A stretch of DNA of 64,000 bases, taken from the NCBI GenBank assembly GCA_963717505.1, contig OY970342.1, forward strand, positions 937,551-1,001,550, given 5' to 3'. The notes under the pieces were generated by a model. The model did no database searches, was not told the DNA's origin, and saw nothing but the letters and a program-made list of their open reading frames with translations. Position 1 is the first letter of the stretch. Every line of letters begins with the position of its first letter. Origin of the DNA: Candidatus Eiseniibacteriota bacterium. Lineage in GTDB: Bacteria; Eisenbacteria; RBG-16-71-46. Positions 2,812-63,129 of the stretch are shown here, in pieces. A program made the position numbers and the translations under genes.

Positions 2812-3746
2812 TCCGCTCGTTGCTCATCGTTCTCGCCGCACTGCTGCTCGCCGGCTGTTCGATCAAGAAGATGGCGACCAAGAGCATGGCCGACGCGCTG
2901 ACCAGCGGACAGGACGTGTTCGGCACCGACAACGATCCCGAGCTGGTGCGTGACGCGTTGCCGTTCGGACTCAAGACGCTCGAGTCGCTGCTGGCCGAGC
3001 TGCCGAACCATCGAGGCCTGTTGTTGTCTGCGTGTCGCGGATTCACGCAATACGGCTTCGCGTTCGTCCAGGGCGAGGCGGCCTACGTCGAGGCGCGCGA
3101 CTACGACCGCGCTCAGGAGATGCGGGCGCGCGCGCTCCAGCTCTACCTGCGCGCCCGCGGTTATGGACTCCGTGGACTCGAGCTGTCGAATCGCGGGATC
3201 AGCGCGGCGCTGCCGGTGAACCCGGATTCCGCGGCGCGCGCGATCAAGCAGGAGAACCTGGATCTGCTCTACTGGACCGCGGCGTCCTGGGGTGCCGCGA
3301 TCGGCGTCGGCATGGACCGGCCCGAGCTGACCGCCGACGTCAGCGTGGTCCGGTCGTTGATGCAGCGCGGCCTCGAGCTTGACGAGACCTACGATGGCGG
3401 GGCGTTTCACGAGGCGATGCTGATCCTCGAGTCGGCGCCGGCGGTGATGGGCGGGTCGATCGCGCGGGCGCGCGAACATTTTGCCCGGGCGGTACAACTT
3501 TCAGGTGGACGGAAGGCGAGTCCCTACGTCACGCTGGCCGAGGCGATTTCGGTCCAGACTCAGGACCGCGCCGAGTTCTCCGCCATGCTGGAGAAAGCGC
3601 TGGCGGTCGATCCCGAAGCCGACCCGCCCAATCGGCTGGCCAATATCGTGGTACAAAAGAAGGCGCGCTGGCTGCTGAGCCGCGCCGACGAGTTGTTCCT
3701 GGACTCCCCGGTCGATGCTCCCATCGAGGAAGGTTCGAAACGATGA
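2808..3746 (+). CDS. TatT-like TPR lipoprotein, TRAP-transporter-associated T component
   Basis: Signal peptide plus lipobox (LLLAGCS). Helical TPR-like repeats. Start ATG overlaps the ETF-QO stop (ATGA) and its stop overlaps the dctP-like start (ATGA). Position directly upstream of a DctP/DctQM pair matches the tetratricopeptide-associated TRAP transporter arrangement. Confidence 0.55.
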   Translation: MIRSLLIVLAALLLAGCSIKKMATKSMADALTSGQDVFGTDNDPELVRDALPFGLKTLESLLAELPNHRGLLLSACRGFTQYGFAFVQGEAAYVEARDYDRAQEMRARALQLYLRARGYGLRGLELSNRGISAALPVNPDSAARAIKQENLDLLYWTAASWGAAIGVGMDRPELTADVSVVRSLMQRGLELDETYDGGAFHEAMLILESAPAVMGGSIARAREHFARAVQLSGGRKASPYVTLAEAISVQTQDRAEFSAMLEKALAVDPEADPPNRLANIVVQKKARWLLSRADELFLDSPVDAPIEEGSKR

Positions 3747-4771
3747 AACGATGGAACGCGATACACACGATGACCGCACTGTTGGCGCTGCCGCTCGCCG
3801 GGGTACCGGCGCCCGCCGCCGCCCAGGAGCAAGTCGTCAAGCTCGCGACGCTGGTGCCCGAAGGATCGGTGTGGCACAAGGCGCTGCGTGACCTCGGCGA
3901 CGGCTGGAACCGCGGCACCACCGCCCGCGTCGCGTTGCGCATCTATCCCGGAGGCGTTGCGGGCGACGAGCCCGACATGGTGCGCAAGATGCGGATCGGG
4001 CAGATCCAGGCGGCGGCGCTGACCATCACCGGCCTGGCCGAGATCGATCCGGCGTTCGACGTATTCGGCATCCCGATGATGTTCGACTCGTATCCCGAGC
4101 TGTTCTACGTGCTGGACAAGATGGAGCCGGTGCTGCGACAGCGTCTCGACGAGAAGGGCTTCGTGCTGCTCAACTGGGGGCACGGCGGCTGGGTCTACTT
4201 CTTCAGCAAGCAGCCGATCCAGTCACTCGCCGACCTCAAGAAGGTCAAGATGTTCGTCTGGGCTGGGGACGATCGCAGCGTCCAGATATGGAAGGCCGTC
4301 GGCTTCCAGCCGGTGGCGCTGGCCGCAACCGACATCCTTCCCGGTCTCAACACCGGCATGATCGACGCCCTGCCCACCACGCCGCTCGCGGCGGCGGCAC
4401 TCCAGTGGTTTCGGCAGACCCCGTACATGGCCGACGTCGGGCTCGGCCCGCTGGTCGGCGGCCTGATCATGACCAAGGCCGCCTGGAAGAAGATCTCCGA
4501 AGCCGACCGCGCAGCGATCCAGAAGGTGTGCAAGTCGACCGAGGCGCGCCTGATGCGTGAAGTGCCCGCACAGGATTCGACCTCGGTGCGCGAGATGCAG
4601 GCGCGCTCGCTCAAGGTCACCAAGATCCCGGCCGCGGACCAGCCGGCATGGCGCAAGCTCGCCGACGACTACGGCGCTCGCATGGAGGGCACGGTTCCCG
4701 CCGAAATCATGGCCCTCGCGCTGCGCGAACGCGACGCATTCCGCAAGCAGGCTGCGGCGGGCGGACACTGA
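3743..4771 (+). CDS. TRAP transporter solute-binding protein (DctP family)
   Basis: Signal peptide, then a DctP-type periplasmic binding fold (LATLVPEGSVWH, RIYPGGVAGDEPDMVRKMRIGQIQAA). Operon position before a fused DctQ-DctM permease. Confidence 0.85.
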   Translation: MKRWNAIHTMTALLALPLAGVPAPAAAQEQVVKLATLVPEGSVWHKALRDLGDGWNRGTTARVALRIYPGGVAGDEPDMVRKMRIGQIQAAALTITGLAEIDPAFDVFGIPMMFDSYPELFYVLDKMEPVLRQRLDEKGFVLLNWGHGGWVYFFSKQPIQSLADLKKVKMFVWAGDDRSVQIWKAVGFQPVALAATDILPGLNTGMIDALPTTPLAAAALQWFRQTPYMADVGLGPLVGGLIMTKAAWKKISEADRAAIQKVCKSTEARLMREVPAQDSTSVREMQARSLKVTKIPAADQPAWRKLADDYGARMEGTVPAEIMALALRERDAFRKQAAAGGH

Positions 4772-4816
4772 CCGCGCCGCCCAGCCCGTGACCGTCCCGC
4801 CCGCGACACTCGAACG

Positions 4817-6610
4817 TTGAAACACCTCGGCCGCCTCGAAGCCTGGATCGCGAGTCTTGCGCTCGCGGCCATGGTCCTCCTGCCGCTCGCGGAGATCGTC
4901 GCGCGACAGGTGTTCGACATCGGGATTCCGGGATCGGGCCCGTTCGTCCAACATTTGACGCTGTGGGTCGGCTTCCTGGGCGCCGCGATCGCCGCGCGCG
5001 AGGGTCGTCTGCTCACGCTCGCGACCACCGAGTACCTGCCCGAGGGCTTCTGGCGACGCGCGGCGCACACCGTGTCGTCGATGGTCGCGGCGGCGATCAC
5101 CGCGCTGCTCGCGCGCGCCTCGCTCCAGCTGGTCCTGGTCGAGCGCGACTCGGGAACCATGGTCGCCATGGTTCCGGCCTGGATCGCGCAGCTCGTGTTG
5201 CCGCTGTCGTTCGCGCTGATCGCGCTGCGGCTGGTGTGGCGGGCCGGCAACACCTGGGCGCCGCGCGTGCTGGCGGCACTCGGACTGATCGGGGGCGTCG
5301 CACTCGGGCAGTACCCGCAGGTGATGGAGTCGATTCCGTCCTGGCCCGGGCTGGTCGTCGTGTTGGTCGGCTCGGCGCTCGGCGGACCGATCTTCACCAT
5401 GCTCGGCGGCGTCGCGGTGCTGCTGTTCATGAAGGACGGCGTGCCGATCGCGGCCATGCCGGTCGAGACCTACCGGCTCGCAGTGTCGCCCACGCTCGCG
5501 GCGATCCCGCTGTTCACACTCACCGGCTATCTGTTGTCGGAGAGCCGAGCGTCCGAGCGGCTGGTCGCGGTGTTCCGCGCGTTTTTCGGCTGGTTCCCGG
5601 GCGGCACCGCGGTGGTGGTCGCCGTGGTGTGCGCGTTCTTCACCGCGTTCACCGGCGGCTCGGGCGTCACCATCCTGGCGCTCGGCGCACTGCTCTACCA
5701 GGCGCTCCAGCAGGACCGCTATCGCGACCGGTTCTCTCTCGGACTGTTGACCGCGTGCGGCTCGCTCGGGCTGCTGTTCCCGCCGTCGCTGCCGCTGATC
5801 CTCTACGGCATCGTCGCCCAGATCCCGATCGAGGATCTATTCATCGCCGGCATCCTGCCCGGGTTTCTGTTGCTCGCGATGGTGGCGTTCTGGGGCGCCC
5901 GCGAAGGCATGGTCACCGGCGCCGGCCGGCAGACGTTCCGCTGGGACGAGGCGGTGCGCTCGCTGCGTGGCGCCGCGTTCGAGCTGATGATGCCGGTGGT
6001 CGTGTTGATCGCGATCTTCGGCGGCTTCGCGACCATCGTCGAAGCCTCGGCGCTCACTGCGCTCTATGCGTTCGTCGTCCAGGTGTTCGTCAAGCGCGAT
6101 CTGTCGCTGACCCGCGACATCCCGCGGGTGTTCGCGCATTCGGTGCTGCTGATCGGCGGCGTCCTGGTGATCCTCGGCGTGGCGATGGGACTCAGCAGCT
6201 ACATGGTCGACGCCCAGATCCCGGCGCGGCTGGTCGAGTGGACGCGGGAACGGGTGCACTCGCCGCTGATGTTCCTGCTCGCGCTCAACGTGTTCCTGCT
6301 GATCGTCGGCTGCCTGATCGACATCTTCTCGGCGACCGTGGTGGTGGTGCCGTTGATCGTGCCGCTCGGGATGGTGTTCGGCATCCACCCGGTCCACCTC
6401 GGCATCATCTTCGTCGCCAATCTCGAGCTGGGCTACCTGACGCCGCCGGTCGGCCTCAACTTGTTCTTGTCGTCGTACCGCTTCCACAAGCCGGTGCTCG
6501 AGGTCGCGCGCGCTTCGATGCCGATGCTGCTCATCCTCGGGATCGGCGTGCTGGTGATCACCTACCTGCCGTGGCTGACCACCGGGCTGCTATCGCTGCT
6601 CGGGCGCTAA
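4817..6610 (+). CDS. TRAP transporter fused small/large permease (DctQ-DctM)
   Basis: 597-aa polytopic membrane protein. N-terminal DctQ-like 4-TM segment followed by a DctM-like 12-TM domain. TTG start. Confidence 0.85.
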   Translation: MKHLGRLEAWIASLALAAMVLLPLAEIVARQVFDIGIPGSGPFVQHLTLWVGFLGAAIAAREGRLLTLATTEYLPEGFWRRAAHTVSSMVAAAITALLARASLQLVLVERDSGTMVAMVPAWIAQLVLPLSFALIALRLVWRAGNTWAPRVLAALGLIGGVALGQYPQVMESIPSWPGLVVVLVGSALGGPIFTMLGGVAVLLFMKDGVPIAAMPVETYRLAVSPTLAAIPLFTLTGYLLSESRASERLVAVFRAFFGWFPGGTAVVVAVVCAFFTAFTGGSGVTILALGALLYQALQQDRYRDRFSLGLLTACGSLGLLFPPSLPLILYGIVAQIPIEDLFIAGILPGFLLLAMVAFWGAREGMVTGAGRQTFRWDEAVRSLRGAAFELMMPVVVLIAIFGGFATIVEASALTALYAFVVQVFVKRDLSLTRDIPRVFAHSVLLIGGVLVILGVAMGLSSYMVDAQIPARLVEWTRERVHSPLMFLLALNVFLLIVGCLIDIFSATVVVVPLIVPLGMVFGIHPVHLGIIFVANLELGYLTPPVGLNLFLSSYRFHKPVLEVARASMPMLLILGIGVLVITYLPWLTTGLLSLLGR

Positions 6611-6614
6611 CAGC

Positions 6615-8225
6615 CTAGAAGGTCCAGCTCAGTCCCGCGTATTCCTGGTGCGTGGTCACCGCACCACCGTGCGTGCGTTCGTAGCTGAGCGACAGATACC
6701 AGAGGGCGCCCATCGCGAGGTCAACGTCGGCGCTCTCCCACACGGCGTGCTCCTCGAGTCCCGTGACCTGCTCGCGGGTATTGCGGGCGCCACCGGCGAA
6801 TTCCAGGTGCATTCCGGTCATCGGGTCGGCGCCCAATCCGACCGACACCAGGTTCGACGACGTGATCGAGCCGTCCGCCATTCCGCCGCGCAGCCGAAGC
6901 GTGGCCATGAGTGACGTCACCCGCATCAGCTCGATCGTACCGGTCGCCGACTGGGTTCGATCGTCCGCGTCCGTGCCATGTGCGCGACCCTCGGCAGAGA
7001 GGCGCAGGTGCCGGTTGGCGCGCACCGAGACTCCGAGCCAGCCGCCCCGGCGGTACCGATCGTCAAACGCGTCCTCGGGCGTGTAGCGATCCCACCAGAG
7101 CCTGACGTTGCGACGCGCGTCGTAGCCGGCAGACAGCTCGACCGGCTTGGAGATCGTGATTCGTCCCAGTACGAACGTGCTGGTGAGCGAGACGGCCGGC
7201 TCTCCGGCCGCGCGCTTCCAGCCGCGAGCCACGTCCACTTCCTGCGATCCGGAAAGGAACCAGCGCTCGTCGGACAGGAAGCCGTGGACGAAGGCGAAAT
7301 CACGATTCGGATTGCCCCCGTGGTACGAAGACACGGCACCGGTGCTCACCGCCCAACGTCGTCGCCCCGCCGGAGCCGGACCGGATCGCCACTCCACGCC
7401 CGCGCCGTGCTGCATGATCTCGCTCGATATCTTGAGCGTCACCGGATCGGGCTGTAGTCCCCCGAACAGACGGACCGACATGCGCGACAACCGGAATTCT
7501 CCGAGCGCCCCGTCGAACAGATTGACCGCCGAGAAGCCGTCAGTGCGCTGCCGGCCGAGCGTCAGGTTCCAGCGGGAGCGCGGGTCGTGCAGGGTCCCCG
7601 ACAGGCGATAGACGCGTGCCAGACTCCGTTCTCCATCCGCGGGATTCCCTCCTACGAAGGTCCTGCGACTGCGCACATCGGCGCTGAAGTCCAGTCGTCG
7701 GGCGGGATCAATGCGATCGACGCGCAAGTCGAGCGCCGGCTGTGCGTAACCCATCCCGGTGCCTCCCTGAACCGCGAGCATCCGCAACCCGGCACGCCCG
7801 CGCAGTCCCTGAATCACCCGCCCCGAGGGAACCACCGGCGTCGCGCGGCCCTGCGCGGGCATCGCGCTCGTCGGCGGCACCTCGGGGCTGATGGGCCCCG
7901 CGGCCACGGGCGGCGGCGCTTCATGCGGTGTGAAACGGACGACGTCACCGACGATCGGGAAGACCCGGACGTTGAACGTGTCGCAGGATGCCCGTTGCGA
8001 AGACAGGAACGACACCCTCAGGTTCGCAATCACGGCCCCACCACGGACGACCTCCAGCGAATCCCCGGCCAGGAGGCCGTCGACCCGGCCGGCATTGACG
8101 TACACCGAGCCCCCCGCGAGGTAGGACACCTGGGTCGAGCGGGTCGCGGCCGATGCCGCCGCGGCCCCGAGCGCGATCAGGATGCCGGCCACCGCCGCAA
8201 TCGAGAGGGTGCACTGCCGGGGCAT
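6615..8225 (-). CDS. Outer-membrane beta-barrel protein, putative porin partner of the multiheme cytochromes
   Basis: 537 aa. Signal peptide (MPRQCTLSIAAVAGILIALGAAAASAA). Pro/Thr-rich linker. Alternating amphipathic beta-strand pattern. C-terminal aromatic terminus (...YAGLSWTF) typical of OM beta-barrels. Its ATG overlaps the TGA of the upstream cytochrome gene (TGATG). Confidence 0.55.
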   Translation of the reverse strand: MPRQCTLSIAAVAGILIALGAAAASAATRSTQVSYLAGGSVYVNAGRVDGLLAGDSLEVVRGGAVIANLRVSFLSSQRASCDTFNVRVFPIVGDVVRFTPHEAPPPVAAGPISPEVPPTSAMPAQGRATPVVPSGRVIQGLRGRAGLRMLAVQGGTGMGYAQPALDLRVDRIDPARRLDFSADVRSRRTFVGGNPADGERSLARVYRLSGTLHDPRSRWNLTLGRQRTDGFSAVNLFDGALGEFRLSRMSVRLFGGLQPDPVTLKISSEIMQHGAGVEWRSGPAPAGRRRWAVSTGAVSSYHGGNPNRDFAFVHGFLSDERWFLSGSQEVDVARGWKRAAGEPAVSLTSTFVLGRITISKPVELSAGYDARRNVRLWWDRYTPEDAFDDRYRRGGWLGVSVRANRHLRLSAEGRAHGTDADDRTQSATGTIELMRVTSLMATLRLRGGMADGSITSSNLVSVGLGADPMTGMHLEFAGGARNTREQVTGLEEHAVWESADVDLAMGALWYLSLSYERTHGGAVTTHQEYAGLSWTF

Positions 8226-9751
8226 CAGCTCCGACCCCGCGGATGGCACGAGAAGCACGCATTGCTTTCGTATTGGTATCCCGACTCGCCGTTGTGATCG
8301 CCATCGGTTTTGGCGCGATCGCTGTGCGGATGACAGGTCAAACAGGTGAACACCGAGAGGTTGGTCGGGTTGGTGTGACAGTCGGAGCAGGCGTCCCATT
8401 TTCCATTGTGCGCTCCGCTGTGGATCGGGAAGAAGTTCGTGTCGTGGTCGAACGTCGCGCCGGTCCAGGTCACGGTCGAGTGACAGGTGACGCAGTCGGT
8501 GTTGAATCCGGCCGCGGCATGCGCTGGGTTCGTCGTGCCGTCGTAGTCCGCCCGATGGCACGAGATGCACGCCGCGCTCTTCCCCTGGTAGACCCCGTCG
8601 CCGTGGCAGCTCGCGCACACCGCAGCCTGATGGGCCCCGGTCAGCGGGAAGCCGGTCATGGAATGGTCGAACACGGCTCCGCCCCAGGTGATCGTCGAGT
8701 GACAGGTCATGCAGTTCGTGCTGAACCCGGCGGATCGGTGGACCGGATCGGAGGTTCCATCGTAGTCCGCTTGGTGACAAGACACGCATGCGGTGCTCTT
8801 GCCGTCGTAGACGCCGTCGCCGTGGCAACTCATGCACGCTGCCGATTGGTGGGCGCCGGTCAGCGGGAACGCGGTCAACGAATGATCGAATGGACTTCCG
8901 CCCCAGGCGGTCGTGGTGTGGCAGGTGATGCAGTTGGTGCTGAACCCCGCCGAGCGGTGCTCCGGATCGGTGGTTCGGTCGTAGTCCTCCTGGTGACAGG
9001 ACACGCACGCCGTGTTCTTTCCATTGTAGACACCATCTCCGTGACAGCTCATGCACGCCACGGATCGATGGGCGCCACTCAGCGGGAACGCGGTCAAGGA
9101 GTGATCGAAGGTCGCGGTCTTCCACCCGATGGAGTTGTGGCAGGTCGCGCACTCGGTCGGGAACCCGCCGCCCCGGTGATCCGGGGTGCGCGCCGCGTCG
9201 TAGTCCTTCATGTGACAGCTCTGGCAGTCGGCCTGCGTATTCAGGAACTGCATCTGACCCTGGGCTGCCGGCGGGTGGCAGGTCTCGCAATCCAGGGTCG
9301 CGTGGAAGCCGGTGAGCGGGAACGCCGTGAGCTGGTGCGCCTGGACCATGGGCGCGCGATCCACGAAGCTGCGGGAACCGTGGCAGCGCGCACAATCGGT
9401 GCCGAACTCGCCCAGGTGCGGATCCTCGTGGCAGGAGGCGCACCGGGGCTCGGTCCGGCGGAACTCGAGACTCGAATGGCACGAGCGGCAGTCGGCGGCG
9501 GCGTGAGCGCCCGCCAACTCGAATCCGAACTTCCCGTGGTCGAACTTGGGGCTGATCTTCGCCGGCTTCCAGGCGTTGGCCTCGTGACAGAGCGCACAAT
9601 CCTCGCGGAAGTCGCCGTGGGGGTTGTTGTCCTTCGCCCGATCGGCGGCCAGCGCCGCCATCGCCAACGCCGCGAGCGGCGTCAACACAACCGCAGCAAT
9701 CGCAAAGCGGCCCCACGTCCGGCGACGTTGATTGTCAGTGCGCGGAATCAT
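8225..9751 (-). CDS. Multiheme c-type cytochrome (19 CXXCH), periplasmic or secreted
   Basis: 508 aa. N-terminal signal/anchor. 19 CXXCH heme-binding motifs. Three near-identical 73-aa triheme repeat units (FDHS[LM]T.FPL.GAH...C.SCHGDGVY.GK..AC.SCH..DYD.T..P.H..AGF.T.C.TCH). Confidence 0.85.
   Translation of the reverse strand: MIPRTDNQRRRTWGRFAIAAVVLTPLAALAMAALAADRAKDNNPHGDFREDCALCHEANAWKPAKISPKFDHGKFGFELAGAHAAADCRSCHSSLEFRRTEPRCASCHEDPHLGEFGTDCARCHGSRSFVDRAPMVQAHQLTAFPLTGFHATLDCETCHPPAAQGQMQFLNTQADCQSCHMKDYDAARTPDHRGGGFPTECATCHNSIGWKTATFDHSLTAFPLSGAHRSVACMSCHGDGVYNGKNTACVSCHQEDYDRTTDPEHRSAGFSTNCITCHTTTAWGGSPFDHSLTAFPLTGAHQSAACMSCHGDGVYDGKSTACVSCHQADYDGTSDPVHRSAGFSTNCMTCHSTITWGGAVFDHSMTGFPLTGAHQAAVCASCHGDGVYQGKSAACISCHRADYDGTTNPAHAAAGFNTDCVTCHSTVTWTGATFDHDTNFFPIHSGAHNGKWDACSDCHTNPTNLSVFTCLTCHPHSDRAKTDGDHNGESGYQYESNACFSCHPRGRS
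8453..9109 (-). repeat. Intragenic tandem repeat: three ~219-bp units each encoding a triheme module
   Basis: Residues 215-287, 288-360 and 361-433 of the 19-heme cytochrome are >75% identical to each other. The underlying DNA is visibly repetitive. Diverged copies flank on both sides. Confidence 0.6.
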
Positions 9752-11624
9752 GGGCAGACGCCTCTCGGGTGGTCAGCATTAGAGCGAATTCCCGTCGCGG
9801 GGATCTGAGCATCATCCCAGACTTCTTCTCTTCGGGCACGTTCTTCCCGTGACAGCTCTCGCACTCGTGGGGAACCGGACGCCAGATCACGAGCGGTCCC
9901 TTCGCCGTCTGTTCCGTGCGATGACACGACAGGCACGGTGTGCGGGCATGTTCGCCTTCGAGTTTGAAGGAGGAGTGCCGGTTGTGATCGAACCGTGACG
10001 CGGGCGCGAACGCATCGTTGTCGTGACAGCCCTCGCAAGCGCCCCGGTCTTTACGACCCTTGAACTGGCCGGCGTGGACGTCCTCGTGGCACTCGGTGCA
10101 ACGGGCGCGCTTCTGGGTGAAGGGCAGGGTCCGGCCGTGCGCGGCGCGCAGGGTCGAAGCGGCAGCCGTCGCCTTGAGCTCGGCGTGGCACGCCTGACAT
10201 GGCACGGCCGCGTGCGCGCCCTCGAGCGGGAAGGCGTAGGCGGCGTGGGCCGCGACGTCCACGGCCGAGGGCCGGAACCGATGCACATCGTGACAGGACA
10301 AGCAGGCCTCTTGGGCACCGCGGGCGGTTGCAAAACGCCCGGCGTGCGGGTCACGGTGACAATCGACGCACTTCTCATGCCCGGGGCGCATGCGGACACG
10401 CGCCGGGCCCAGGGTGGCGGCCTCCGCGGCGTTGCCGCGTGCATGGCACAGGCGGCATTCGGTCTCGACGTGCGCCCCCTCCAGTGGATAGCGGGTAGCG
10501 CGATGACTGGCCACGGTGAACGAAGAGTGCTCGAAGGTCGCGACGGTGTGACAGGTCGCGCAGTCGGCCGGCTTCCCGACGATCTGGCCCTGCCCGGCGT
10601 GCTGGTCCTTGTGGCATGAACCGCAGGTTGCGAACGGCGGCTTGGCCCCCCAAGCGCGCTTCGTGTCGTGACAGTCGGCGCATGCGACCTCGGCGTGCTT
10701 CCCTTTGAGCGGGTATCGCGTCAGGTCGTGATCGAATCCCTTTTCGTTGATCACCGCGAATCCCTTGGTCGAGTGGCAGTCCGAGCAGGCGGTCCCGAAT
10801 CGACCCTGATGTACGTCGCGGTGGCAGGAGCTGCATTCGGCGTGGGGCACCGGCCGGTAGCGCGCGTCTTCGGTGAGCTTGGGTGCGTGAGCGGCGGCCA
10901 TGCCGCTGGCCGCAGTTCGGGTGCGGGTTCGCTGGCCTTCGGCCGCGACCACCTGGACTCCCGCAGGGGGATGGCACTTGGCACACTCGACGTCGACGTG
11001 CTTGCCGGTGAGCGCGAAGCGGGATTGATCGTGGTCGAACTTCGCCGCCGGACTCCAACCGTCGAGCCCGTGGCAGGTCTCGCACTTCGACCCTACCTGG
11101 CTGCGATGCACGTCTTTGTGACACGAGACGCAATCGGTCTCGAGGGCGAGCCAGCTCTCGGTATGGTTCTCGACCCGGAGCTTCCCGGAGAGCGGTAGTC
11201 GCTGGTACTTCGGTTCGTGACAGGTTCTGCACTCGACCTTGGCGTGCTTGCCCTCGAGCGGCCAGCCGGCTTCGTTGTGGTCGAAGGCCTCGAGTCCGGC
11301 CTTGCCCCAGGACACCAGGTCGAAGTCGCGCCCGGCGTGATCGGGATGGCAGCTCGCGCAGGCCTGGTCGGCGACCTTGGCATGGTACCCGCGATTCGCG
11401 CTCCTCATGGTCGCGATCTCGGTGTGACAAGCGAGGCAGTTCGCGTCCATCGTCGACTTGCGCCCGGGCGCGACGTGGCACTTGAAGCAGTCGAGCGAGC
11501 CGTCGAGGCTGCGATGCGCATGGGCGAGCGGGCCGGGCGAGATCTGGCCCGCGGCCGGTGCCGCCCACGCGGAGACTCCGACCAGCAGCACCGCCCGCAG
11601 GAATCCGTCACGATGCCACCTCAC
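9735..11624 (-). CDS. Multiheme c-type cytochrome (20 CXXCH)
   Basis: 629 aa. Signal peptide (LRAVLLVGVSAWAAPAAGQ). 20 CXXCH motifs with paired-CXXCH spacing and recurring FDH...[FY]PL.G.H modules. GTG start overlaps the stop of the upstream oxidoreductase by 4 nt. 14-nt gap to the next cytochrome gene. Confidence 0.85.
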   Translation of the reverse strand: MRWHRDGFLRAVLLVGVSAWAAPAAGQISPGPLAHAHRSLDGSLDCFKCHVAPGRKSTMDANCLACHTEIATMRSANRGYHAKVADQACASCHPDHAGRDFDLVSWGKAGLEAFDHNEAGWPLEGKHAKVECRTCHEPKYQRLPLSGKLRVENHTESWLALETDCVSCHKDVHRSQVGSKCETCHGLDGWSPAAKFDHDQSRFALTGKHVDVECAKCHPPAGVQVVAAEGQRTRTRTAASGMAAAHAPKLTEDARYRPVPHAECSSCHRDVHQGRFGTACSDCHSTKGFAVINEKGFDHDLTRYPLKGKHAEVACADCHDTKRAWGAKPPFATCGSCHKDQHAGQGQIVGKPADCATCHTVATFEHSSFTVASHRATRYPLEGAHVETECRLCHARGNAAEAATLGPARVRMRPGHEKCVDCHRDPHAGRFATARGAQEACLSCHDVHRFRPSAVDVAAHAAYAFPLEGAHAAVPCQACHAELKATAAASTLRAAHGRTLPFTQKRARCTECHEDVHAGQFKGRKDRGACEGCHDNDAFAPASRFDHNRHSSFKLEGEHARTPCLSCHRTEQTAKGPLVIWRPVPHECESCHGKNVPEEKKSGMMLRSPRREFALMLTTREASAHDSAH

Positions 11625-13060
11625 GACACCGCGGCCGCTTCATGCGTCGCCGGTTCCAGCGCGATTTCCTTGCGCACGATGCGGACTCCCATCCGCTGCA
11701 GAAACGGGTAGGGGGCTTCCCCCCCGATGCGAACGATGACAAAGTCATTGGGTTGCTCGTACGGAGCGCCATTCTGCTCCAGGATCACCGAATGAGGTCG
11801 GATCTCTCGTACCTGGGTACCGAGCAGGAGCTGGATCCGCTTCTGCTCGACTGCGGCCTTGAGCTTGGCCTGATTGCGCTCCTTCAGCCGCGAGAACTCG
11901 GTTCCGCGATACGAGAGGCTGACGGTCGTGCCCTTCTGGTTCGCGAGCCCGAGCGCCGACTCGATCGCGCTGTCGCCGCCCCCGACCACCAGCATCGACT
12001 GTCCGGCGAACGCCTCCATCTCGATGATGTCGTAGAGCACCTTTTCGGAATCCTCGCCGGGCACCCCCAGACGCCGCGGCGTCCCGCGCCGGCCCATGGC
12101 GAGCACCACAGTGCGCGAACGGACCTCGCGGTCGGCGGTCGAGACCCGGAACATCTCGCCGTCGCGCTCCACGCGCTCGATTCGGTGACCGGTGTTCACG
12201 ATCAGGCCGGTCTTGGCGATGACCGTCTTCCACACGGCCAGCAGCTCTTCCTTCGAGCCGTCCGCCACCCACAAATCGCCGTACAGGGGCATGCGCACCG
12301 GCTCGGCGAACAGCAGCTTCTTGCGCGGGTACTTGTTGATCGTGTCCGAGATCGCCCCCTGCTCCACCACCAGGTAGTGAAGCCCGGATCTCAGGGCCTC
12401 GAGACCGGCGCTCAGTCCTGCAGGGCCCGCACCCACGACCACGATGTCGTAGGCGTGCACGTCGCGATCCCGCCGCGGTTGACTGGGTGGCAGGAGACGA
12501 GCGATGTGCTCGACCGCGAGCTTGCCCTCGTTGACCGCGTTCTTGATCAGCCCGCGACCGCCGAGCTCGCCGACCACGTAGAGCCCGCGAACGTTGGTCT
12601 GAAAGTGCGCATCGACATAGGGCACCTCGAGGCGTTGCACCGCCGCACCCGCGGTGACCACCACCGCGCCTACCGGACATGCGGCTTTGCAGCTCGCGTG
12701 GCCCTTGCACAAGTCCAGATTCACGGTGGCGAGCTTGTTCACCATCACGATGGCCCCTGGCTCCGGGCAGGCGTCGACGCAGGTGCCGCAGCCCACGCAC
12801 AGATCCGATCGCACCACGGCGTGGAGCGGCCCCGAGGCCTCGGGCTCGGGGCCGTCGGCGACGATTGGCGCCAGGACCAGATCGTACGCCTGCATCGGCG
12901 CGTTGCATCGGGGGCAGGCCGAAGCATCGGGGGCCACCATGGTCTTGCACCGGGGGCAGGGCATGCCGGCGTTGCGGCCGGAGCCGCGCTGTCGCATGTG
13001 GAGCACGGCCAGCAGCACCGTGATTCCGGCGAATGCGATCGTTGTTATGAGCATGGTCAC
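11621..13060 (-). CDS. Membrane-anchored ferredoxin-domain / FAD-NAD(P) pyridine-nucleotide-disulfide-family oxidoreductase
   Basis: N-terminal TM helix (MLITTIAFAGITVLLAVL). Cys4 zinc-ribbon (CPRCK...CPRCN). Two 4Fe-4S ferredoxin motifs (CVGCGTCVDACP, CKGHASCKAACP). Then a TrxR-like FAD/NAD-binding fold (VVVGAGPAGLSAG, second Rossmann VVGGGDSAIE). Confidence 0.75.
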   Translation of the reverse strand: MTMLITTIAFAGITVLLAVLHMRQRGSGRNAGMPCPRCKTMVAPDASACPRCNAPMQAYDLVLAPIVADGPEPEASGPLHAVVRSDLCVGCGTCVDACPEPGAIVMVNKLATVNLDLCKGHASCKAACPVGAVVVTAGAAVQRLEVPYVDAHFQTNVRGLYVVGELGGRGLIKNAVNEGKLAVEHIARLLPPSQPRRDRDVHAYDIVVVGAGPAGLSAGLEALRSGLHYLVVEQGAISDTINKYPRKKLLFAEPVRMPLYGDLWVADGSKEELLAVWKTVIAKTGLIVNTGHRIERVERDGEMFRVSTADREVRSRTVVLAMGRRGTPRRLGVPGEDSEKVLYDIIEMEAFAGQSMLVVGGGDSAIESALGLANQKGTTVSLSYRGTEFSRLKERNQAKLKAAVEQKRIQLLLGTQVREIRPHSVILEQNGAPYEQPNDFVIVRIGGEAPYPFLQRMGVRIVRKEIALEPATHEAAAVS

Positions 13061-13070
13061 GAGCGAATCC

Positions 13071-14042
13071 TCAAGACCCGACGGCGCCCATCAGCACCGC
13101 GACCACCACGTGGATCAATATCGCGACCAGCGCGGTGATGGCCACCGGACGATGTGCCACGTGCCAGAGCGCGAACAGTCGCCGGGTGGCTTCGAAAGCG
13201 CGGATCTGGTGGGCCAGAGTCATCTCCCGCCGAGCGAGACGGGTCACTTCCACGAGCTGACCGTGATCGAGCGCCTTGCGTCCCGGACCGGGCCGTGCGA
13301 ACCGCTTGGTCAGGTGCCTCACCGCGCGCCAGCGGGTGAAATCGCTGGTGACCAGCAGGATCAACGCGCGGCCCGTGCCCAATCGCGACGTCGGCGCAGG
13401 ATCCAACACCAGCATCTGCTCCACGTCCGAGGGGAGCAGCCCGGTGGTGGCGGCGATCCGGGTGACGATGGCACGTCGCTCGTTCGAAGCGTCCTCGAGC
13501 GTGAGTTCGAGACCGGCCTGGCTGCGCGGAATGCGTACGTAGAGATAGCGGCCGACGATGCCGCTCAGGACCACGAGCATCATCGCCAGGAAACCGAGGC
13601 CGATCAGCCCCTCGAACCGCCAGCCGGCATGAACCGCAACCAGCCCCGGCAGGGCGAGCCCGGCAACCGTGTGGACGCGCATCCACGAGGGCAGCTTCCC
13701 GGTCCACGCCAGCCAGCGGAACTTCTTGCGCAGCGGGTAGAGCCACATGAACAGGAAGAAGGCGAAGCCCACGATCCCGAACGAGAGTCCGACCGAGCCG
13801 CCCGGCTTGAGCAGGGCGTGCACCGGGTCTCGGACACGCTCACTGCGCTCGGCCACGTAGTAGTGGAGCCAAACCAGCGACAGGGCCGCCGGAATCGCCA
13901 GGAGGACGAGCAGCGACCACCGATCGGCCGTCTCGGAGCGTTGAGCCGGCGCCACCAGCTTGGGTTTTGCGGACACGACCGGGGGCCGGCCAGGGGGCGG
14001 GAACGCAGCCCTTGGCCTGCCCGAAGCAGGTGCCTGTTGCAT
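13071..14042 (-). CDS. Polytopic membrane protein with conserved intramembrane His pairs; candidate b-type heme or electron-transfer membrane subunit
   Basis: 324 aa from the first ATG (MQQAP...). 5-6 predicted TM helices. His residues inside helices (HYY in TM1; H-x13-H in HTVAGLALPGLVAVH; WHVAH and IHVV in the last helix). First gene of the cytochrome operon, 11 nt before the oxidoreductase gene. Confidence 0.45.
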   Translation of the reverse strand: MQQAPASGRPRAAFPPPGRPPVVSAKPKLVAPAQRSETADRWSLLVLLAIPAALSLVWLHYYVAERSERVRDPVHALLKPGGSVGLSFGIVGFAFFLFMWLYPLRKKFRWLAWTGKLPSWMRVHTVAGLALPGLVAVHAGWRFEGLIGLGFLAMMLVVLSGIVGRYLYVRIPRSQAGLELTLEDASNERRAIVTRIAATTGLLPSDVEQMLVLDPAPTSRLGTGRALILLVTSDFTRWRAVRHLTKRFARPGPGRKALDHGQLVEVTRLARREMTLAHQIRAFEATRRLFALWHVAHRPVAITALVAILIHVVVAVLMGAVGS

Positions 14043-14131
14043 GATGCAACGCTCCGTATCGCGGTTTGCGAGGGAAACACACGGAGAAACCTGGCCCGCA
14101 GCCATTGAGGGACGGGGGTAGGCCAGGTCCT

Positions 14132-14147
14132 TGCAGAACAGGTGCCA
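14132..14147 (-). promoter_or_regulatory. Candidate sigma-54 (-24/-12) promoter upstream of the cytochrome operon
   Basis: Minus-strand sequence TGGCACctgtTcTGCA matches TGGCACG-N4-TTGCA at 14/16 positions with the correct GG/GC spacing, about 90 nt upstream of the operon's first start codon. Confidence 0.35.
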
Positions 14148-14199: not shown

Positions 14200-16068
14200 C
14201 TATCGCGGCGCCGCCCCCTCACTCTCCAGCCAGCCCACGATCTCCCGGGTCTTGTCGTTATCGGGCGCCAGCCTTCGCAAGTGAAGGACTGCGTGCTCGA
14301 CTGCGGCGCGATTGCCGCAATTGATCCCACTCACCCCGACACCGAACCAGGCGATCGTGAGGTTCGAATCGCGCTCGGCGGCGCGCAAGTAGATGTCGAG
14401 GGCCCGGTCGTGTCGGCCGTTCATGGTCTCGGCCATCGCCCAGTGCGTGTGGTTGCGGGCGCTGGGCGCGGCCGCCACTGCCTGTTCGAACGCGCGCGCG
14501 GAGTCCTCGTAGCGCGCCTCGCGAAAGTTCCGCCAGCCGAGAAAGTCCCAGGTGCGAGCGCGATCGACCGCCGGGCGGCCGGGCGGCTCGAGCATCAGGG
14601 CTTCCAGTCGCGCGAAGCCGCGCGCTTCATCGGCGTAGTGCACCAGCCACTGAACGGCCGGGGTCGCGACCGCCGCGATCACCGCGACGGCGAGCCACCC
14701 GCGGCGCGAGCCATCGAGTGCGACCGCGATGCGCCATGCCGACCAGACCGCGAGTGCCACACCGGCGGTTGCGAACGAGTCCCAGTCGCGCACCAGCCCC
14801 TGTGGCGGACGTGCCGCCAGGAACACGAACGCGAACGGAATCGCGATCGACGCGGCGATCCAACCCTGGTCGCGACGTAGCTGTCGGATGGCGGCGTCCG
14901 GCTCCGCGGCGCGCCGGCCGGCGATCGCCGCGATCACGGCCACCAGCAGGGCCGGCGCCAGGAACAGAACCAGGTTCAACACGTCGAGCAGCCGCGTCGG
15001 CTCGAATGCGGCCGCGAGCATTCCACCTCCGGCGCGCGTCTCAGCGGTCGCGAAGTTGGCGCCGAGGTCATAGGTCACGATGGTCCGCCACAGACGCGGC
15101 GCCAGGACGCAGAGCACGGTGATCGGAATGGTGACGGCGAAGAGCGCCGCGGCACCCGGTCCGCCGCGCGCCCTACGAAGCGCTCGAAACCCGATCACCC
15201 AGGTCAGCAGCAGTGCCGGCACCAGCCCGAGCGCAAAGCGATGGAACAAGACGCCGATCGAAACGCATAGTCCGGCGCCGAGCAGCGGTACGCCGACGGC
15301 GGCCGACCCGCTCGCCGCCCGGCTCGCGTCTGCAACTGCGAGCGCGCACGCCGCGAAAGCGACCACCACCACACAGATCTCCGCGAAGGCCTTGCTCTCC
15401 CCCGTGTAGAGACAGAGGTAGCCGCCAAACAGAACCATCGCGGCGGCGGCCGTGGTCGCCGCCGGGCCCACTCGCATCGACCGCGCCAGGAAGATGGCCG
15501 CGGCGCCGAGCAGTGCCGCGCCCACGGCACCGATCACGCGTACGGCGGTGTGGACGTCGGTCCAGCCGGCCGACTGCACCCACCGTGGCAGCGAGTAGTG
15601 CAGCCAGACATCGAGTGGGAATGCCTGCGGCGAGAGCACCGTCGGGTCTTGTCCGTCTCGGAGCCCGCCCAAACGGATCAGGAAGTCCCCGACGAAGTAG
15701 AGACGGTCGGGGAGCGCGAACACGAGGGCGGCGGCAATCACGGCGGCGACCAGGCCACCAAGCGCGGTTCGCGTCTGGATCGCGCGCCCGGCGGCCTCCG
15801 CCAACGGCGCCAGACGGCGGGCCACCGGTGGCGTCAGCGCCGCGGCCGCCAGAACCCACGGCGCCCACGCCCACCAGGGGTCGAGGAAGCGCTGGACGTT
15901 GAGCCCCCACAGGGCCATCGACGGAACGAACGAGACGACGGCGCGGGCGACGAGGAGTGTCACCAGCGCAACCGCAATCGCCGTCGAACGGTGGTCCCGG
16001 GAACGCACTTCGTGGCCGATGGCGCCCCGGTGCGCGCCGGACGCGCCTTGCTGCGCGAGTTTCGCCAT
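14200..16068 (-). CDS. Polytopic membrane protein with C-terminal TPR-like repeats (possible GT-C/PMT-ArnT-like glycosyltransferase)
   Basis: 622 aa. About 12+ hydrophobic helices followed by a soluble C-terminal helical-repeat region (ARYEDSARAFEQAVAAAP...ALDIYLRAAERD). Function inferred only from architecture. Confidence 0.4.
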   Translation of the reverse strand: MAKLAQQGASGAHRGAIGHEVRSRDHRSTAIAVALVTLLVARAVVSFVPSMALWGLNVQRFLDPWWAWAPWVLAAAALTPPVARRLAPLAEAAGRAIQTRTALGGLVAAVIAAALVFALPDRLYFVGDFLIRLGGLRDGQDPTVLSPQAFPLDVWLHYSLPRWVQSAGWTDVHTAVRVIGAVGAALLGAAAIFLARSMRVGPAATTAAAAMVLFGGYLCLYTGESKAFAEICVVVVAFAACALAVADASRAASGSAAVGVPLLGAGLCVSIGVLFHRFALGLVPALLLTWVIGFRALRRARGGPGAAALFAVTIPITVLCVLAPRLWRTIVTYDLGANFATAETRAGGGMLAAAFEPTRLLDVLNLVLFLAPALLVAVIAAIAGRRAAEPDAAIRQLRRDQGWIAASIAIPFAFVFLAARPPQGLVRDWDSFATAGVALAVWSAWRIAVALDGSRRGWLAVAVIAAVATPAVQWLVHYADEARGFARLEALMLEPPGRPAVDRARTWDFLGWRNFREARYEDSARAFEQAVAAAPSARNHTHWAMAETMNGRHDRALDIYLRAAERDSNLTIAWFGVGVSGINCGNRAAVEHAVLHLRRLAPDNDKTREIVGWLESEGAAPR

Positions 16069-16180: not shown

Positions 16181-19100
16181 ATGACCCAAGCACCGACCCA
16201 TCCTGAACCCCGCCGCAGCACCCCTTTTCCCTGGCGCCCGGTGCTTACCGTCCTCCTGGTCCCCGTGGTGCTGGTCGTGGTCCTGGTGGCCGCGCTCCAC
16301 ACGCCGTGGGGCATGAAGACGGTCGCTAATCAGGCTTTGCGGGCGGTGCCCCTGTGGCCCGAGACGCGGCTCGAGGCCGCCGCCGCCCGCGGCGGGTTTG
16401 GCTCGGGCATCGAGCTCTACGGCATCCGCCTGATCGCGCCCAACGGACCTTTGGCGGGCGTCATCGACACGCTGCGCGTGAGCTACCAACTGCACGAGCT
16501 GTTGGGAAACCCGAGGCGCGTACGCGAGATCCGGATCGCCGGACTTCAGTTGCTGGCGAGCCGGCTGCCGCGCGCGGTGGCCAAGGATCGCAAGTCGCGC
16601 GCCGACCGCCGGCCGCCGCAGGTCACCCTGGACCGGCTCGAGCTGCATCGCACCGATCTCGAAATTCACGTTTCATCGTTCGGACGCGACTCGGTGCTGC
16701 TCGTCAAGGGACTCGATCTGACGATGACCGATTTTCGGTTGCACGAGTCGACCTCGCTCGCGCTCGACACGCTGAGCGCGACCCTGGTGTCGCCCGCCGC
16801 CCCGGCCGAGTCCTTGCGCCTCGCGATGCGCGGGCGCCTGACACCGACGCGCCTCGAGCTCGATACATTGTCGATTGCCGGGGTGCGCACCCGAGTCACC
16901 GGTGCGGGAACGCTGCCGGTGAAGGGTGGCGAGGGCGCGAGTTTCGTGGGCGCGGACTTCAGCCTATACGCCCGGCCGCTCGCCGGCGCCGACATCGAGC
17001 GCTTCCTTCCGTTCCTGGGCAATCCGGGCGACCTGACGCTCGGCATGGTCGCCCGCAGCCGGGGCTCGCGGCTGCACGCCACGGTCGACGCGCGCGCCGC
17101 GCGCGGCGGCCACGTCGCACTAGAAGCGACGGTGGCGGCTGCTGGCGGTCCGATTTCGCTGCACACAGACGGGCGTGTGGATGATCTCGATCTCGGCGCA
17201 CTTCGGGGCGGAGCGGCCGACAGCTTGGTGATCGACGCCTCGTGGCGGGCGGAGTTGGATGGGCCGGACCGCGCACACCTTTCGGGCCCGATCGCGCTGA
17301 CCCTCGATGGGTCGCGCGTCGGCGACCTGCGGTTCGACGAAGCCCGAATCGAGGGCGCACTCGCCGACCGTCGCGCAACCGTGAACGCGCGCGCCCGCGG
17401 CGAGGGTTTCGCACTGACCGTCGCCGGCTGGGCGACCCCGCTCGACTCGATCGTCGCCTACGACGCCTCGGCGGTTCTTTCCCTCGCGCGCGTCCCGTAT
17501 CCACCGAGGTCGCCTTTCTCGCCGCCACCCGATTCGCTGGCGGACTCGACGACGTTGTTCGCGGGTGATACCGAGATTCAAATCAGGGGCCGCGGCCTCT
17601 CGGCGGATCGTGCGCAGACGATTGCGACCCTCGAGCTGCGTCCGGATTCGACCACGCCGTCGCTGTTGGGCGCCGGCCGGGTCGCAGCCAACCTCGATGC
17701 GGGGGTCGCGCGCTGGCGAGTCGACCTGCAGGCCACATCGGGTTCGATCCGTGCCAGCGGTGATTTTGGCCTGTCGCCCGAGCTATCGTATCGGATTCAT
17801 CGCGCCGAGATCGCCGGCGTCGACATCGCAGCGTTCGCCGGCGACACCACCGCGAGCCGGCTCGACCTCGTGCTGCGTGCCGAGGGCCGTGGCGCGGAGC
17901 CCGATCGGATTCGGGCGACCGCCGTGATCGATTCCCTGGCGCTGGCTTACGGGATCCATCGGATCGCCGGCGGCACCGCCACGGTGAACCTGGATCGCGG
18001 GCGCGCGCGATTCGAGAGTGCGGTCACCGTGGACCAGGCAACCGTCCAGGCGAGCGGCACGCTCGAGCCCCTGAGCCAACCCAAAGCCGCGCGCATCGCG
18101 TTCGATGTTCGCGACCTCGATCTGGCCAAAGTCACCGGAGACTCCCTGCTCACGAGCCAGCTCGCCGGCCACGTTCGAGCCGAGCTGCGCGGGTCCGATC
18201 TCGCCGCGTGGCTCGGGACACCGACGCGGAATGCAGCGATCGAGTCCGGGCGCGGCCTGGTGCGAATCGAGCTCGAACCATCGTCGGTCGGCGATCAGCA
18301 CATCGCGGTCTTCGACCTGCGCGGCGACCTCGAGCGCGGCACCGTGAAGCTCGGGGGGCGACTCGAGTCCTCGTTCGGCGAGGTGCGACTCGCCGGGACC
18401 GCACGTCCGTTCGATGCGGTTCCGACGCTGCGGCTCACCCCGCTCGCCTTCTCGTCGTTCTCGCCCCTGCTGTTGGTCGGCCGCCCGGACCCCGCGCTCG
18501 AATTCGAAGGCCGGCTCGACGCCGAATTGTCGGGACGGAGTCTCGCCGAGCTCAGCGGCAACCTCGATCTCGTGCTCGACGGGTCGCGGGTGAACTCGAT
18601 GACCTTCGATCAGCTCGCCGTTCATTCGCGCATGGGCGAAGGGACCATCGAGACCCACCTCACTGCGCGCGCCGCGGATGATTCGGCCGACGTGGCGTTG
18701 ATCGGCGCGCCGTTCCTGGATCCGCGTCGCTTGCACGCCGCCGGACGGATTCGGTCGGTCGGCCTGGCCTCTATGTTGGGCATCGATTCGGTCCGTGCCG
18801 GCGCCGGCCTCGAGTTCACCTTCGACGGCCGTCAACCGCGGGGCGGTGGCGTGGACGATCTCGTACTTTCGGGGTCGGTGGCGGGTAACGCTTGGCTGGG
18901 CGAGGCGCGCCTCGACACGGTTGCGGGCGAGTTCAACGTCGAGCACGGCGTTGCGCAGGTGCCTCGTCTCGCGTTGCGCGGCAACGTGCTGAATGCCGAC
19001 GGTGGCGGCCGGGTGGTGCTGCCGCGATCCCGGTCGCGCGAGGCCACGGACGTTCGCCTCACGGGAACGCTGGACCGCATTGAACTGCTGCCTCCCCTCC

Positions 19101-63009: not shown

Positions 63010-63129
63010 GCCGGCGCTATCACCCTGCGGTTGTCATCGACCCTCTCGATCAGCCGCCGGTCGAAACCGTCGGATCCCCTCAAGGCCGACCCAACGTAGC
63101 GCCAACCCTCCTCCCCTTGGAGGCGCGCC

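Follow-up and report, generated by a model that had tools for sequence, protein, structure and literature searches.

The 64,000-nt stretch of Candidatus Eiseniibacteriota contig OY970342.1 that was analysed here as a whole (the window) carries on its minus strand, at 6615-14042, an operon of five tightly packed open reading frames (ORFs), denoted g1 to g5. With somewhat better than even confidence this operon is read as encoding a self-contained route that takes electrons out of the cytoplasm to the cell surface, namely a porin-cytochrome conduit of the PCC3 type whose entry resembles a ferric reductase or NADPH oxidase (NOX) split between two proteins. Its products are an inner-membrane protein (IMP, g1), a membrane-anchored Fe-S/FAD flavoprotein (g2), two c-type cytochromes (g3 and g4) and an outer-membrane β-barrel protein (g5). 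An NAD(P)H-driven, NOX-like entry is favoured because the partnership with a flavoprotein is constant, survives shuffling of the gene order and is taken over by unrelated NAD(P)H flavoproteins in other lineages.

The entry of electrons from the membrane into outer-membrane conduits is understood only in a few Proteobacteria and in Geobacter, where it proceeds via quinol dehydrogenases. Clusters of the PCC3 type are widespread and their IMP has so far been assumed to be quinone-linked, and the operon described here gives a testable alternative to quinone-fed conduits.

Organization of the operon

All five minus-strand genes proposed in the sequence-only reading, an earlier annotation of this DNA made without database searches, are present. 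Gene g1 (13071-14042, 323 aa) starts at the position chosen in the public gene call P0121, with an alternative ATG at 14105; the upper limit of 14147 given earlier for the operon lies about 100 nt too far. Gene g1 is followed by g2 (11621-13060, 479 aa, GTG start), g3 (9735-11624, 629 aa, 20 CXXCH motifs), g4 (8225-9751, 508 aa, 19 CXXCH motifs) and g5 (6615-8225, 536 aa). Between g1 and g2 there is a gap of 10 nt, not 11 as first counted (TGA GGATTCGCTC GTG). The 4-nt overlap of g2 and g3 (GTGA) and the 1-nt overlap of g4 and g5 (TGATG) are as described before, and from the latter g5 is predicted to be translationally coupled to g4. A 14-nt gap had been assigned to the g3/g4 junction; with the ATG at 9751 as start, which is preceded by GAGAGG 9 nt upstream, the two genes instead overlap by 17 nt.

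The total of 39 CXXCH motifs in the two cytochromes agrees with the earlier count. This concentration is far beyond chance, because only one other ORF of the window, incomplete and situated at its far end, contains at least two such motifs. The domain calls were likewise borne out by Pfam, with matches to Pyr_redox_3 (6e-43), Fer4 families, the Cytochrome_C7/c3 families and, weakly, DZR/Zn-ribbon. Neither g1 nor g5, on the other hand, matched any Pfam or NCBIfam family above threshold, so that the earlier remark that none of the components is exotic by itself does not hold for these two proteins.

A scan for promoters and terminators yielded no promoter-like and two terminator-like sites, which is not above the number in shuffled sequences and uninformative at 68% GC. 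A σ54-like string upstream of g1 (TGGTAC...GTTGT) was dropped, as it lacks the GG-N10-GC spacing.

Conservation of the module across genomes

On long contigs, three g2 homologues, from a Gemmatimonadaceae genome, a Gemmatimonadaceae metagenome-assembled genome (MAG) and an Eisenbacteria MAG, are flanked alike in all three cases, with a roughly 330-residue membrane protein, two to three large cytochromes and a protein of about 540 aa without Pfam domain, in this order, and the outer neighbours vary between the three genomes. A scan with a g1 profile, with one genome per species, returned 80 loci from Eisenbacteria, Gemmatimonadota, Krumholzibacteriia, Latescibacteria, Acidobacteriota, one Bacteroidota and one Myxococcales MAG. 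Counts were made on the 52 loci whose sequence extends at least 9.5 kb beyond the g1 homologue in the downstream direction. Every one of them encodes a barrel, and 47 have two or more cytochromes with no fewer than 10 hemes each. Likewise, a g2 homologue adjoins the g1 homologue in 47 of the 52 loci, co-directionally in 32 and divergently in 15. In the position of g3, 33 loci encode a 23-heme and 16 a 20-heme cytochrome; the cytochrome in the position of g4 ranges from 10 to 70 hemes. In a profile search of 1.84 billion representative sequences the IMP family comprised 2757 clusters at 50% identity.

The five parts are also kept together in four other gene orders, with g1 homologues of only 29-33% identity. 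Writing MHC for a multiheme cytochrome with its number of hemes, Fp for the flavoprotein and x for an intervening gene, these orders are IMP-MHC20-MHC18-MHC12-barrel-Fp, IMP-MHC21-barrel-Fp-MHC21, MHC23-MHC31-barrel-x-IMP-Fp and IMP-Fp-MHC20-MHC34-MHC9-barrel. The gene order of the window itself is present in a cultured organism, Emticicia oligotrophica DSM 17448, on plasmid pEMTOL02 of about 100 kb (EMTOL_RS21090-21110), where the operon is preceded by ccsA and the RefSeq names of the products are hypothetical, NAD(P)-binding and cytochrome c3 family. The five-gene synteny proposed earlier thus recurs in related genomes of several phyla and, in permuted form, in distant relatives. Judged by this co-occurrence, the five genes are one conserved module across phyla and gene orders.

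Upstream of the Emticicia operon (locus L090, 902-8982) the plasmid encodes a CcsA-type cytochrome c biogenesis protein of 1028 aa, an ECF-type sigma factor, a second β-barrel, a Rieske protein, a DUF5777 barrel, a YceI protein and a c-type cytochrome, which suggests a larger plasmid-borne redox island around this copy. In several Gemmatimonadales loci with divergent g2 (L038, 1137-9648, minus strand; also L030, L044, L046, L060, L066 and L068) g2 is the first gene of a second operon, whose further products are a CcmE-domain protein, a molybdopterin oxidoreductase of 808 aa, cytochromes with 5 and 4 hemes and a membrane protein resembling NrfD; there, g2 may act for two systems. Response regulators dependent on σ54 adjoin the module in two distant lineages (L086, 1-910; L088, 1816-4481), the second of which also has a PAS histidine kinase. 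No regulator gene adjoins the operon in the window.

Exchange of the flavoprotein on proteobacterial plasmids

On plasmids of Methylophaga, Legionella and Alteromonas the gene directly upstream of the IMP homologue encodes a flavoprotein of a different architecture, FAD_binding_6 plus NAD_binding_1 plus Fer2. A Sphingobium plasmid has a third one in this place, a protein with Pyr_redox_3, cNMP and Fer4_11 domains, followed by the IMP and a 10-heme cytochrome. The cytochrome downstream of the IMP homologue in the proteobacterial plasmid cassettes is of the c-type, with 7 or 10 hemes, and the RefSeq name of the Legionella IMP homologue is "iron reductase". Since three flavoprotein architectures fill one and the same position, these arrangements argue that the cytoplasmic partner of the IMP is an NAD(P)H dehydrogenase.

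Three-gene cassettes of this sort occur on plasmids of Methylophaga, Legionella fallonii, Alteromonas macleodii and Bradyrhizobium BTAi1 (L093, 6073-9427; L094, 2980-6310; L095, 2989-6472; L091, 8270-10424). They consist of an FNR-like FAD/NAD/2Fe-2S flavoprotein of about 640 aa, a short IMP of 228-252 aa and a cytochrome c3-family protein with about 7 hemes. Frequently they lie beside metal-related or hydrogenase genes, namely those for a multicopper oxidase, a P-type ATPase or a hydrogenase small subunit.

The inner-membrane protein g1

The AlphaFold2 (AF2) model of g1 (pLDDT 83) has five transmembrane (TM) helices, the number also given by hydropathy. The third helix (13623..13694) carries the motif WMRVH(124)-x13-H(138) and the fifth (13092..13172) the motif WHVAH(297)-x13-H(311); His124 and His138 of the former and His294, His297 and His311 of the latter are invariant in 97 homologues. 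Motifs of this WX3HX13H type are retained even in the homologues of 29-33% identity. The fourth helix (13536..13610) contains SGIVG, an instance of the SGXXG motif, with Ser160, Gly161 and Gly164 invariant in the same homologues. No cysteine of g1 is conserved among them. The intramembrane histidine pairs noted earlier in this polytopic protein are confirmed as four invariant residues on TM3 and TM5, matched in depth across the membrane, and g1 is described as a putative di-heme-b transmembrane wire.

Between TM4 and TM5 the model places a helical domain on the cytoplasmic side that spans about 118 residues (aa 170-287, 13182..13535; helices 182-200, 204-211, 223-249 and 260 onwards). It contains 20 lysine and arginine residues and, among the 97 homologues, the invariant residues Glu179, Glu188, Arg189, Asp234 and Arg237, and is a candidate docking surface for g2.

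The Pfam family Ferric_reduct (PF01794) does not match g1 and is reached only below threshold in 28 of the 97 family members, at best with an E-value of 0.0024. A profile search against the sequences of solved structures gave no match for g1, and Foldseek of the model against the Protein Data Bank (PDB) found nothing (best E 2.4). Gene fusions, as possible signs of physical contact, were sought in the long family members P0240, P0271 and P0276, where only Pro/Ala-rich low-complexity extensions are present.

The Fe-S flavoprotein g2

The polypeptide chain of g2 begins with MTMLITT, in keeping with the family consensus MxMLLTT, and passes into a TM anchor recognized by hydropathy, MLITTIAFAGITVLLAVLHM, followed by RQRGSGR (12995..13054). 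An N-terminal TM segment with a stretch of Lys and Arg is present in every g2 homologue inspected, including those of about 40% identity; none of these has a Tat motif, and g2 lacks a signal peptidase site. The redox domains of g2 are therefore placed on the cytoplasmic side, the position given in the sequence-only reading, for which the search for a cleavable Tat or Sec signal likewise left only the uncleaved anchor.

Behind the anchor lies a four-cysteine ribbon, CPRC-x10-CPRC (12905..12958), with Cys35, Cys38, Cys49 and Cys52 invariant in the close family. It matches Pfam DZR/Zn_ribbon_3 weakly, is missing from several distant homologues and may be a zinc-binding or a rubredoxin-like centre. 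The ferredoxin-like domain (12665..12817) comprises CVGCGTCVDACP and CKGHASCKAACP and follows the pattern CxxCxxCxxxCP plus CxGHxxCxxxCP, with seven invariant cysteines (Cys88, Cys91, Cys94, Cys98, Cys118, Cys124 and Cys128). At the place of the missing eighth cysteine there is mostly a histidine, also in homologues of about 40% identity. Two [4Fe-4S] clusters had been predicted earlier; the ferredoxin-like domain is indeed there, but with seven cysteines instead of eight two canonical [4Fe-4S] clusters are not assured. Because a histidine replaces the eighth cysteine, the domain probably holds one [4Fe-4S] cluster together with either a [3Fe-4S] or a His-ligated cluster. The Emticicia protein also lacks the second cysteine of its first Fe-S motif (CIGSGAC).

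The C-terminal FAD/NAD(P)H domain (11639..12451) is of the thioredoxin reductase (TrxR)/YpdA type, with the Rossmann motifs GAGPAG and GGGDSA, and residues 204-479 contain no cysteine at all. In addition to Pyr_redox_3, Pyr_redox_2 (1e-25) and Fer4 families are matched. The YpdA equivalog model TIGR04018 scores 176.7 bits and does not reach its cut-off of 339.9. The closest PDB entries are YpdA/Bdr (7a76, 7e-35; 7a7b), followed by TrxR and TrxR-type FNR (5ygq/3ab1, about 1e-12). In total 6812 homologues were found at E<=1e-10, and the best 120 of these are about 60% identical over the full length. The SYRG..F.R stretch that follows the second Rossmann motif is conserved and hints at a preference for NADPH.

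The cytochromes g3 and g4 and the barrel g5

Both cytochromes consist of heme domains of the c7/c3 type, with a number of histidines sufficient for bis-His ligation, and sequence searches of g3 and g4 against solved structures returned no match. The product of g3 has a Sec signal peptide, 53 histidines and 31 residues per heme, and matches Cytochrome_C7 at 1e-25. It is presumably the conserved wire and, to judge from the signal peptide alone, periplasmic. The product of g4, also with a signal peptide, is rich in Thr, Ser, Ala and Gly, has 26.7 residues per heme and is presumably the variable outer component. Three near-identical tri-heme repeats of 73 residues in g4 (8492..9169; CXXCH spacing 32/16/25) suggest a recent tandem expansion, which fits the range of heme numbers in related genomes.

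In g5 a signal peptide and a small N-terminal β-domain (aa 29-98, 7932-8141) are followed by a disordered linker and, in the AF2 model, by a barrel of 22 strands (aa 140-535, 6618-7808) that closes with the C-terminal sequence GLSWTF. The outer-membrane barrel of the earlier annotation is thus predicted to be large rather than a small porin. At one locus (L086, 6202-9183) the g5-like barrel protein has 993 residues and an AMIN domain, which suggests that the N-terminal part of g5-like barrels is a periplasmic, possibly cell-wall-binding module.

Proposed electron path and alternatives

From the genes, motifs, predicted folds and cross-phylum co-occurrence observed above, the cofactor content, protein contacts, donor, direction and acceptor of the system are inferred as follows. 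The flavoprotein g2, held on the cytoplasmic face by its single TM helix, would oxidize NAD(P)H on FAD and hand the electrons through its two Fe-S clusters to g1. In g1 an inner b heme near the cytoplasm would be ligated by His124 with His297 or His294 and an outer b heme near the periplasm by His138 with His311, and the two hemes would carry the electrons across the membrane. The 20-heme cytochrome g3 would accept them from the outer b heme and bridge the periplasm. Finally, g3, g4 or both would thread through or sit on the g5 barrel, where an extracellular or insoluble acceptor would be reduced.

NAD(P)H has a potential of about -320 mV. By reasoning rather than as a result, the outward direction is favoured, since there is a large drop from NAD(P)H to external acceptors and the flow runs with the membrane potential. 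In that case the route would dispose of electrons or mobilize metals by reduction and would not pump protons.

Several observations weigh against such a path. About four of the 52 long loci have no g2 within 10 kb, so the conduit may accept inputs other than g2. The signal of g4 is a plain Sec signal without lipobox, and a lipoprotein signal is absent from g3 as well; in fold, the g5 barrel is closer to generic porins, to ushers and to TonB receptors than to MtrB. Several of the lineages that carry the module, Gemmatimonadota among them, are commonly considered aerobic heterotrophs, E. oligotrophica was isolated from warm spring water, and a metal-respiring lifestyle is indicated for no carrier by the results of this analysis. 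PCC3 itself is a bioinformatic prediction and "functionally unverified" (PMC5566968; Gallionellaceae survey PMC9900912), and for the IMPs of PCC3 and PCC4 two b hemes as in the ferric-reductase domain but electron exchange with quinones have been proposed (PMC5566968).

This quinone model leads to an alternative that we consider unlikely, in which the conduit works inwards, g1 is a quinone-reactive cytochrome b and the cytochromes and barrel are fed by an extracellular donor such as Fe(II), Mn(II) or reduced humic substances. The flavoprotein would then be, with the same low probability, an accessory outlet making NAD(P)H or a regulator responding to the redox state. Quinone-coupled inward flow is exactly what He et al. 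put forward in 2017 for the PCC3 and PCC4 IMPs of iron oxidizers (PMC5566968), PCC3 genes are expressed in Sideroxydans with one IMP gene up during iron oxidation, and the few loci without g2 would be accommodated. Against it, reduction of NAD(P)+ by donors in the range of Fe(II) is strongly uphill, electrons moving inwards oppose the membrane potential, and the operon contains no pump or proton-coupling element. The NAD(P)H-type flavoprotein flanking the IMP in 47 of 52 loci, together with the three architectures in this position elsewhere, points to a cytoplasmic partner and not to the quinone pool. Most carriers are uncultured MAGs, and to our knowledge none of the carrier lineages found here is a described iron oxidizer.

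Outward flow could also end in the periplasm, with g1 and g2 charging the cytochromes as a redox buffer or feeding soluble periplasmic substrates in the manner of Fre-MsrQ-MsrP, a reading that is improbable to a similar degree. The substrates could, for instance, be oxidants, metal ions or another enzyme, and the barrel, no more probably, only a substrate porin or export channel. MsrQ sets a precedent for heme-b delivery into the periplasm fed by a flavin reductase (PMC12525009), the proteobacterial three-gene cassettes near multicopper oxidase and P-type ATPase genes do without a barrel, and both the missing lipoprotein signals and the porin-like, usher-like and receptor-like fold of g5 would be in keeping with it. 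However, the barrel is present in all 52 long loci, stays linked despite shuffling and is translationally coupled to g4. Moreover, 20-70 hemes at 27-31 residues per heme are wire-like rather than enzyme-like, and the strong variation in length of the second cytochrome is what a part exposed at the surface would be expected to show.

It is very improbable that g2 is a thiol/disulfide reductase of the YpdA or thioredoxin-reductase kind, acting in cytochrome c maturation or thiol homeostasis of the envelope. The names of homologues in the JGI data ("putative YpdA family bacillithiol system oxidoreductase", "thioredoxin reductase"), the best PDB relatives and the position of ccsA before the Emticicia operon would fit this function. 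Because the flavodomain contains no cysteine and the YpdA score stays below its cut-off, this reading is largely refuted by sequence; in addition, g2 is fused to an Fe-S domain and anchored in the membrane, no cysteine of g1 is conserved, and FNR-type flavoproteins replace g2 in other lineages.

The preferred path from NAD(P)H to the cell surface can be widened to the whole IMP family, though only tentatively and at somewhat less than even confidence. The family, which is defined by its motifs and has no Pfam model, would then supply the membrane component of a widespread two-part system that is independent of quinones and resembles NOX and ferric reductases, with interchangeable cytoplasmic NAD(P)H flavoproteins. 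Just as tentatively, its two b hemes would pass electrons to periplasmic multiheme cytochromes and, in systems with a barrel, further to the cell surface.

If the preferred path is correct, the energetics of such conduits shift from a respiration-linked process to electron disposal or reductive mobilization. Candidate extracellular electron transfer would reach major soil phyla without a model organism, and the cultured E. oligotrophica DSM 17448 would be a concrete test system. Should the wider reading of the IMP family hold as well, the quinone-based model of PCC3 and PCC4 would have to be revised, and Gemmatimonadota, Eisenbacteria, Acidobacteriota and Bacteroidota, which are abundant in soil and sediment, would gain a direct route from NAD(P)H to the outside, with reductive mobilization of iron and manganese, redox balancing and extracellular superoxide formation as possible uses.

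Neighbouring genes in the window

On the same strand as the operon, 157 nt upstream of g1, lies a gene for a polytopic membrane protein of 622 aa with C-terminal TPR repeats (14200-16068, minus strand), and beyond it a gene for a TamB-like protein of 1709 aa (16181-21310, plus strand). At the other end, genes for a TRAP transporter (3743-6610, plus strand), comprising DctP and a fused DctQ-DctM protein (597 aa), converge with g5; they end 4 nt from the g5 stop codon, with no terminator-like site between. The TRAP transporter, the TPR membrane protein and the TamB-like protein were considered as members of the module and rejected, as they are not conserved beside it in other genomes.

The second multiheme cytochrome gene of the window (63100-63999, plus strand) runs off its end and encodes at least 10 CXXCH motifs in 300 residues, with strong matches to Paired_CXXCH_1 (4e-32) and NrfB-like matches. 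It is unlinked to the operon and adjoins aldehyde dehydrogenase and glyoxalase genes.

Comparison with known electron conduits

The operon follows the logic of MtrCAB/MtoAB and OmaB-OmbB-OmcB, with genes for a presumably periplasmic multiheme cytochrome, a barrel of the outer membrane and a presumably outer cytochrome side by side. The cytochromes themselves, however, remain far below the family cut-offs, with 44.9 and 28 bits for DmsE/MtrA (TIGR03508, cut-off 192.2) and 32 and 20.5 bits for OmcA/MtrC (TIGR03507, cut-off 209.3). Whereas the known conduits are fed by the quinol dehydrogenases CymA, ImcH or CbcL, the operon contains no such gene.

The proposed entry resembles that of Fre-MsrQ, NOX and the ferric reductases (FRD), in which electrons pass from NAD(P)H via flavin and heme b to a periplasmic or external acceptor (PMC12525009, PMC5676040, PMC11031084). 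The protein g1 shares with NOX/FRD the histidine pairs on TM3 and TM5, putative bis-His heme sites, with a spacing of 13 residues (His124/His138 and His297/His311), but it has five TM helices instead of six, and the Ferric_reduct threshold is never reached. In place of a fused FNR-type domain there is a separate chain of the TrxR/YpdA type with Fe-S clusters and an anchor of its own, and the acceptor would be a chain of multiheme cytochromes. As to the flavoprotein, the fold and the FAD/NAD(P)H motifs of its flavodomain are those of YpdA/Bdr and TrxR-type FNR; it differs from YpdA/Bdr in the cysteine-free flavodomain, the fused ferredoxin-like domain, the Cys4 ribbon, the TM anchor and the score below the equivalog cut-off.

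The closest counterpart is PCC3, which was predicted in iron oxidizers and other Proteobacteria by He et al. (2017, Front Microbiol, PMC5566968). The likeness was judged on published motifs, heme counts and architecture, so that the operon is set beside PCC3 by description. PCC3 consists of a porin, a periplasmic cytochrome with a median of 21 hemes, an extracellular cytochrome with a median of 34 and up to 85 hemes, and an IMP; the conserved cytochrome ranges from about 21 to 27 hemes and the variable one from 10 to 85, and the extracellular one contains internal repeats and has a ratio of 22-39 residues per heme (PMC5566968). The IMPs of PCC3 and PCC4 have about 300 residues and five TM helices, with SGXXG on TM4 and WX3HX13H on TM3 and TM5 (PMC5566968). 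All of these IMP motifs (WMRVH-x13-H, SGIVG and WHVAH-x13-H) recur in the 323 residues and five TM helices of g1. Likewise, g3 has 20 hemes, with 23 or 20 in the same position in relatives; g4 is variable (10-70 hemes in relatives) and built with tri-heme repeats, and the 27-31 residues per heme of g3 and g4 fall within the published 22-39. Because g1 carries the IMP motifs and the Leptothrix PCC3 porin is, like g5, predicted to have 22 strands, the core of the operon is, by these features, PCC3-like.

The two systems differ in that PCC3 is consistently described as four genes without a cytoplasmic partner (PMC5566968; PMC9900912), whereas the operon of the window has a near-constant fifth member, the Fe-S flavoprotein. 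The hosts differ as well, with Eisenbacteria, Gemmatimonadota, Acidobacteriota and Bacteroidota here versus Proteobacteria for PCC3, and so does the gene order. PCC4 has an Fe-S gene (pfam13247) upstream of the IMP and further redox genes in the cluster (PMC5566968). It shares with the operon the IMP motifs and an Fe-S gene beside the IMP, and the Sphingobium plasmid locus is of the PCC4 style. The periplasmic cytochromes of PCC4, however, have 4, 5 and 10 hemes and an extracellular one is missing, as against the 20- and 19-heme proteins of the window.

A literature search found no paper linking PCC3 to a flavoprotein or to these phyla, and a peat preprint on conserved clusters for extracellular electron transfer (10.64898/2026.05.27.727921) deals with different clusters, with cytochromes of 8-13 hemes. 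The earlier suggestion that a heme-b subunit and a flavoprotein lie outside described conduits is consequently to be divided: the heme-b IMP is already part of PCC3 (PMC5566968), and the constant flavoprotein partner is new with respect to the papers found. The fixed partnership with a cytoplasmic flavoprotein of the NAD(P)H type seems to be undescribed. The operon is thus not categorically new but of the PCC3/PCC4 kind, extended to lineages of the FCB group and Acidobacteriota and equipped with an NAD(P)H-type input of its own.

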